Part shown: positions 54,864-55,259 of the stretch, piece after piece
How the letters are laid out: every line of letters starts with the position of its first letter
Numbering within the stretch: the first letter of the stretch is position 1
Assembly: GCF_044324785.1 (NCBI RefSeq)
Contig: NZ_CP172127.1
Direction: 5' to 3' (one strand)
Source of the DNA: Escherichia coli
GTDB taxonomy: Bacteria; Pseudomonadota; Gammaproteobacteria; Enterobacterales; Enterobacteriaceae
DNA length: 64,000 nt
Translations under genes and position numbers: made by a program
Notes under the pieces: generated by a model
Told to the model about the DNA's origin: nothing
Databases searched by the model: none
What the model saw: only the letters and a program-made list of their open reading frames with translations

Positions 54864-54869
54864 GTACAC

Positions 54870-55010
54870 CTTTCCAGATACGGGAGGCGAAGTCATTTCT
54901 TCCTTCGCCCTGGTGGCAATCTTTACGAGCATTGTCACGGCCAAAGCACCGTATCAGTTGACCCAGGTGCAGAGGCTAGAGTGTTTAGTGGTTAAGCCGA
55001 TACTAGCGTG
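54870..55010 (-). ncRNA. candidate molybdenum cofactor (Moco) riboswitch in the moaA leader (boundaries approximate)
   Basis: Long leader between promoter and moaA start; placement follows the known Moco RNA motif upstream of moaA; I did not fold it or score a covariance model. Confidence 0.45.
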
Positions 55011-55038
55011 TAAATGAGATTTTTACCATCCACACTTT

Positions 55039-55062
55039 CGCTATGTAATCATGTATATAGCG
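55039..55062. promoter_or_regulatory. candidate ModE operator upstream of the moa operon
   Basis: Inverted repeat cgctatgtaatcatgtatatagcg (CGCTAT ... ATAGCG). Confidence 0.45.
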
Positions 55063-55259
55063 TCATGATCGTGCTATTTCGCTACAGAATAAGGGAAAAT
55101 GGCGGTTTTACTTTGATATACATCATCAGGAAGGCATAGCGTACATCGTCCTTTAGAGGTAGAAGAAAATAGTTTGTATCCTCAATATTGGCAGGTTAAT
55201 TGCTGTTTCCCCGCAATTTGCGCTACTGTAGCGCGGATAATCTGACTCCAGGAAACTAT

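Follow-up and report, generated by a model that had tools for sequence, protein, structure and literature searches.

The 396 bp between moaA and ybhK in this Escherichia coli chromosome are, with near certainty, the known multi-layer control region of the moaABCDE operon, comprising FNR, ModE and the molybdenum cofactor (Moco) riboswitch. The window, i.e., the whole stretch of 64,000 nucleotides that was analysed, is E. coli DNA which is reverse-complemented with respect to K-12. Several E. coli chromosomes match a 701-nt query around the spacer at 100% identity, and 5424 of 5426 complete genomes contain it. The identity, the position, the statistics and the conservation of every sequence element were established by this analysis. 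The transcription start sites, the dependence on ModE and FNR, the repression by Moco and the effects of CsrA and Rho are taken from the literature.

The divergent moaA-ybhK spacer

The spacer (54864-55259, exactly 396 bp) is located between two divergently transcribed genes:

53874-54863, minus strand: moaA (GTP 3',8-cyclase), first gene of moaABCDE, assigned by translation and annotation comparison
54861-54863, minus strand: moaA start codon (ATG 54863-54861), +131 from transcription start S1, coincident with the K-12 moaA start in the alignment
55260-56168, plus strand: ybhK coding sequence (PGAP name yvcK), ATG at 55260, divergent from moaA

A model which had read the letters alone (the sequence-only reading) reported nearly 400 bp between ybhK and the moaA start, and the measured length agrees. 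It also designated the whole stretch a long moaA leader, and here it has to be corrected: the region is a divergent intergenic one with two promoter regions. The moaA leader comprises 130 nt when counted from start site S1 and about 217 nt when counted from the upstream start S2. The remainder of the 396 bp is promoter DNA which is shared with the divergent ybhK.

The spacer of K-12 MG1655 (NC_000913.3, 816648-817043) is the same locus and aligns with that of the window from end to end. K-12 shows no change in the ModE operator proposed below, in the FNR-like site, in either -10 box or in the S1-transcribed aptamer. The two spacers differ by three substitutions (55143, 55131 and 54995), none of which touches a defined element, the operator or the S1-transcribed aptamer. 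Position 54995, at -2 from S1, is a T here and an A in K-12 and most Enterobacterales (GGCTTAACC vs GGCATAACC); the T is probably neutral.

At the ybhK end of the spacer a perfect 7+7 palindrome, GCGCTAC-T-GTAGCGC, occupies 55220-55234 and stops 26 nt before the ybhK ATG. E. albertii, Salmonella arizonae and Citrobacter amalonaticus have retained it. In Citrobacter FP75 its outermost pair is changed from G-C to A-T on both arms, and it is absent from Enterobacter, in which the spacer is about 100 bp shorter. The element could be a hairpin in the 5'-UTR of ybhK or an operator. A lone terminator-like match, on the strand opposite to ybhK and within the start of that gene, was judged irrelevant.

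The Moco riboswitch and its output

The moaA-proximal part of the spacer is occupied by the riboswitch:

54851-54995, minus strand: Moco riboswitch aptamer (RF01055) with stems P1-P5; it extends over the ribosome-binding site and the start codon of moaA
54867-54872, minus strand: Shine-Dalgarno sequence AAGGUG in the 3' strand of P1, ending 3 nt before the AUG

A scan of positions 53500-56500 against all Rfam families (E up to 1) returned a single match, RF01055, the Moco RNA motif. It scored 103.4 bits against a gathering score of 36 (E = 5.7e-26), covered model positions 1-135 of 135 and was found again when the whole window was scanned. The match spans the proximal approximately 130 nt of the spacer and the first 13 nt of moaA. 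The sequence-only reading had placed a candidate Moco RNA motif in the proximal 140 nt, had proposed a search with the RF01055 covariance model and had named the lack of a significant hit as its refutation; the score obtained is far above the gathering threshold, and the placement stands. At the equivalent position of a genome with 100% identity PGAP/RefSeq annotates a "molybdenum cofactor riboswitch". Elsewhere in the window, and unrelated to the moaA region, the Hfq-binding sRNA STnc490 (RF01405) has a full-length match at 31774-31897 on the plus strand (146.4 bits vs a gathering score of 56).

The structure line of cmscan displays P1-P5 including the P3 stem, and P4 contains AGAAAU with its GAAA tetraloop. 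GGUGUA of the P1 3' strand pairs with ACAC(U)C of the 5' strand in the cmscan alignment and overlaps the Shine-Dalgarno sequence AAGGUG. The aptamer is positioned directly upstream of moaABCDE, with the Shine-Dalgarno sequence in P1 serving as the expression platform. The five stems, the GAAA tetraloop of P4, the Shine-Dalgarno sequence in P1 and the position ahead of a Moco operon are all shared with the RF01055 family (Regulski et al. 2008). No difference from the family emerged, E. coli moaA being its experimental type example. The presence of P3 marks the form which is associated with Moco, not with Tuco.

Related loci were collected in one plain-DNA scan of species-representative genomes, in which the 3' end of the aptamer was joined to the CNFRC radical-SAM motif of moaA. 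The scan returned 120 loci from Enterobacterales, Aeromonas, Vibrio, Alteromonadales, Xanthomonadales, Caulobacterales and one Acidobacteria genome. From 22 diverse loci RNAalifold recovered P2, P4 and P5, and compensatory double changes are present at 15 of 24 pairs. P2 and P4 show compensatory changes across the 22 diverse bacteria. P1 and P3 were not recovered by RNAalifold from these 22 loci, the flanks of which were ragged in the MAFFT alignment, and both stems rest on the alignment to the Rfam model.

An RNA structure prediction was also proposed in the sequence-only reading. The minimum-energy fold of the S1 leader keeps P3 and P4; the consensus stems P1 and P2 are absent from it and its z of -1.6 is unremarkable. 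Because minimum-energy structures miss consensus P1/P2, folding energy was not used as evidence. Folding energy alone would not have found the riboswitch.

The alignment of Enterobacterales contains, in many members, an insertion of 15-40 nt which comes after the S1 start region and before aptamer stem P1 (alignment columns 283-325). Carriers are Citrobacter (L010, L028, L058, L096, L105), Kluyvera (L018, L078, L091) and the Enterobacter/Pluralibacter rows; E. coli, E. albertii and Salmonella are without it. Therefore, the leaders of those Enterobacterales are longer than that of E. coli. Some of the insertions look self-complementary, e.g., ACTCGACGTATGACGAGT in Citrobacter.

Experimentally, the ribosome-binding site has been located inside the motif, and Moco-dependent translational repression was attributed to the 131-nt stretch from S1 to the start codon (Regulski 2008, PMC2408646). 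The same authors called an in vitro test of Moco binding to the RNA impractical, and in a 2024 paper the exact metabolite of the Moco riboswitch was still unidentified. The ligand may be Moco or a compound closely derived from it; the literature consulted contains no in vitro demonstration that the RNA binds Moco directly. This circumstance, together with an effector that was undefined in 2024 and with the binding of CsrA inside the aptamer (PMC7652899), leaves room for a leader which is not a true metabolite-sensing riboswitch, the Moco-dependent repression being mediated by an unidentified protein or by CsrA alone. We consider this quite improbable. A multistem junction is conserved, with covariation, from Gammaproteobacteria to Alphaproteobacteria and Acidobacteria, according to the genetics repression depends on a complete Moco pathway and on stem P1 being intact (PMC2408646), and no protein factor has been found. 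Metabolite sensing by the leader RNA is the reading retained in the following.

CsrA has two binding sites inside the aptamer and acts as an activator of translation (PMC7652899, summarising Patterson-Fortin 2013). The S1 leader contains exactly two GGA motifs (54903-54901 and 54875-54873), which suggests that these are the two CsrA sites:

54901-54903, minus strand: GGA motif in the loop region of P4, candidate for CsrA site 1
54873-54875, minus strand: GGA motif next to the Shine-Dalgarno sequence on its 5' side, candidate for CsrA site 2

Rho has been implicated in the same leader. Adams et al. 2021 (PMC7815308) include moaA in their list of genes whose 5' UTR or ORF contains Rho-dependent 3' ends, and report that a moaA fusion is up more than 2-fold in rhoR66S. 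These data lend some weight to premature Rho-dependent termination, and not translational occlusion itself, as the main output of the riboswitch. We regard this as unlikely, albeit as a proposition to be taken seriously. The Shine-Dalgarno sequence is inside P1, and regulation was seen with translational fusions on a constitutive promoter (PMC2408646). Moreover, the simplest view of Rho termination is that it follows from the block in translation, and the two mechanisms are compatible, not exclusive. Translational occlusion by P1 is thus preferred as the primary output.

Start sites, FNR-like site and probable ModE operator

Following Anderson et al. 2000, Regulski 2008 (PMC2408646) numbered S1 as +1 and S2 as -87 (legend to Fig. 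2 therein). [quoted passage not shown] A construct described in the same paper as "1 to 145 relative to S1" begins with AACCACTAAACAC; this maps to 54993-54981 and positions S1 at 54993. The elements around the two starts are as follows:

54993, minus strand: S1 transcription start (+1), ModE-activated, placed from the literature
55000-55005, minus strand: S1 -10 box TAGTAT, -12 to -7; TAGTAT or TACTAT in 28 Enterobacterales
55023-55028, minus strand: weak S1 -35-like hexamer TGGTAA, -35 to -30; ATGG conserved in the alignment
about 55080, minus strand: S2 transcription start, -87 from S1, FNR-dependent, literature-derived
55086-55091, minus strand: S2 -10 box TATTCT, -11 to -6 from S2; conserved in 26-27 of 28 Enterobacterales
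55113-55126, no strand assigned: FNR-like site TTGATatacATCAT (TTGAT-N4-ATCAT), centre at -39.5 from S2; 9 of 10 positions match TTGAT-N4-ATCAA
55039-55062, no strand assigned: putative ModE operator, CGCTATATA-CATGAT-TACATAGCG in moaA orientation, centre at -57.5 from S1; assigned by inverted repeat, consensus and conservation

The -35-like hexamer of S1 agrees with TTGACA at only 3 of 6 positions, which would be in line with an activator-dependent promoter. A simple sigma-70 scan detected no promoter-like site in the region. This blank result fits two activator-dependent promoters and provides no positive support for them.

The FNR-like site has a core, TGAyGTATATCAA, which is nearly invariant in the Enterobacterales alignment. 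Taken by itself the pattern is not statistically unusual (4 found vs 2.5 expected in 64 kb); the FNR assignment rests on conservation and on the literature. Like the sites of class II FNR promoters (TTGAT-N4-ATCAA near -41.5) it matches at 9 of 10 positions, is conserved in Enterobacterales and is positioned upstream of a start which is FNR-dependent according to the literature. It differs from them by its degenerate half-site ATCAT and by a centre at -39.5 from the literature-derived S2, where -41.5 is canonical.

The operator candidate is the 24-bp palindrome cgctatgtaatcatgtatatagcg. Its 9-nt arms, in which 8 of 9 positions are complementary, flank a 6-nt spacer. The 396-bp spacer contains no other inverted repeat of 8 nt or more, and RefSeq has no feature beneath the palindrome. 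The consensus derived from footprinted E. coli ModE sites is ATCGCTATATA-N6-TATATAACGAT (PMC2700814, a Geobacter genome paper). The dyad conforms to the published consensus core at 16 of 18 positions with exact spacing. In the 64 kb of the window TATAT-N7-TAYAT occurs once, at 55039-55062 and with an exact core match, where 0.08 occurrences are expected; CGCTATATA-N6-TATATAACG with up to 3 mismatches is likewise found at this site only (0.03 expected). The promoter distances are self-consistent: relative to S1, the -10 box is at -12 to -7, the -35-like hexamer at -35 to -30 and the ATG at +131. The dyad extends from -69 to -46 relative to S1.

When the 120 loci are compared, an operator-like site with at most 1 mismatch is present in all 29 Enterobacterales loci with enough upstream DNA (20 exact), as opposed to 2 of 87 loci from outside this order and 6.6% of shuffled Enterobacterales upstream regions. 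In the initial scan the Enterobacterales sites are about 171 to 228 nt from the 3' anchor of the aptamer, i.e., at broadly similar distances. In an alignment of 28 genera and species the two arms carry 1.68 and 1.85 bits per column and the 6-nt spacer 0.68, the upstream region overall having 1.11. Among E. coli genomes, 5420 of 5426 contain the 61 nt which surround the site, and 4915 of these are at least 99% identical. Arms which are conserved around a spacer which is free to vary follow the pattern of a dimeric DNA-binding protein, as against the compensatory changes of an RNA hairpin. The sequence-only reading had interpreted the palindrome as a ModE-type operator candidate and had considered it refuted if the palindrome lacked conservation. 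Consensus fit, uniqueness in 64 kb, location relative to S1 and conservation in Enterobacterales support this interpretation of 55039-55062 as a ModE operator.

The palindrome is also transcribed from S2 (+18 to +41 of that transcript), and its role might be that of an RNA hairpin, e.g., a stabiliser or an attenuator, instead of a DNA operator. In favour of this, the arms are paired with each other when the S2 leader is folded to minimum energy. However, the pairing is absent from the centroid structure, the fold as such is unremarkable (z = -1.45), no T-run follows the palindrome, and the arms are nearly invariant without clear compensatory changes while the loop-equivalent spacer varies freely. 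Given, in addition, the fit to the ModE DNA consensus, such a hairpin function is extremely unlikely. We assign equally little credence to an operator for a regulator other than ModE, or to one which serves ybhK instead of moaA. The palindrome is indeed at 198 bp from the ybhK ATG, in a spacer which both divergent genes share. Yet its distance to the moaA features is constant across genera while the length of the ybhK-proximal spacer varies by about 100 bp, it is the sole match to the ModE consensus in 64 kb, and the literature assigns ModE to the S1 promoter. A ModE operator for moaA is the interpretation we adhere to.

Outside Enterobacterales the riboswitch-moaA loci are generally without a ModE-type dyad. 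This applies to Aeromonas (L008, L015, L024 and others), Vibrio (L051, L075) and Caulobacterales (L050, L067 and others), in which the best ModE-type matches within 300 nt upstream have 2-5 mismatches. Judged by these matches, the pairing of a ModE operator with the riboswitch appears to be restricted to Enterobacterales in the 120-locus sample.

In the E. coli ModE operators two CGCTATATA-type arms form a dyad and are separated by exactly 6 bp, as they are in the moaA site. Repression by ModE at modA works through an overlap with the promoter. In contrast to the repressing modA site, the moaA site activates S1 from -57.5 and is, at the same time, downstream of S2. The geometry of activation would be class-I-like. 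The exact borders of the ModE footprint follow secondary accounts. In 1997 McNicholas reportedly described ModE sites at moaABCDE, and in 2000 Anderson is said to have described the moa promoters; the two papers together are credited with the binding of molybdate-ModE and with the modE-dependent regulation of the adjacent promoter.

Joint control of cofactor synthesis

The elements can be combined into one scheme of regulation. Under anaerobiosis FNR bound at 55113-55126 would drive the upstream start S2 at about 55080, its dependence being taken from the literature. A molybdate-loaded ModE dimer on 55039-55062, centred at -57.5, would activate S1 at 54993 with its poor -35 region. Transcripts from S1 and from S2 would both include the Moco aptamer of 130 nt. 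When Moco, or a compound closely derived from it, is plentiful, P1 would close over the Shine-Dalgarno sequence AAGGUG and translation of moaA would be blocked. CsrA, acting at the two GGA motifs of the aptamer, would counteract the Moco-dependent block, and leader RNA which is not translated would be open to Rho-dependent termination.

The position of the ModE dyad within the S2 transcription unit admits a further function. Molybdate-ModE might operate as a promoter switch which activates S1 and either blocks elongation from S2 or alters the 5' extension of the aptamer RNA. We view this as a speculative and rather unlikely proposal. If true, it would mean that molybdate status sets the leader isoform under anaerobiosis.

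Every layer of this control is already known and was described between 1997 and 2021; the window adds nothing new. The CsrA layer of moa control is reportedly the contribution of Patterson-Fortin in 2013. What the sequence-only reading achieved is to recognise a textbook control region from the letters alone, together with a protein operator which has no RefSeq annotation. The molybdenum cofactor is needed by anaerobic respiratory enzymes. Its synthesis would be jointly set by anaerobiosis through FNR, by the supply of molybdate through ModE and by the level of the end product through the Moco riboswitch, with CsrA and Rho as additional participants.
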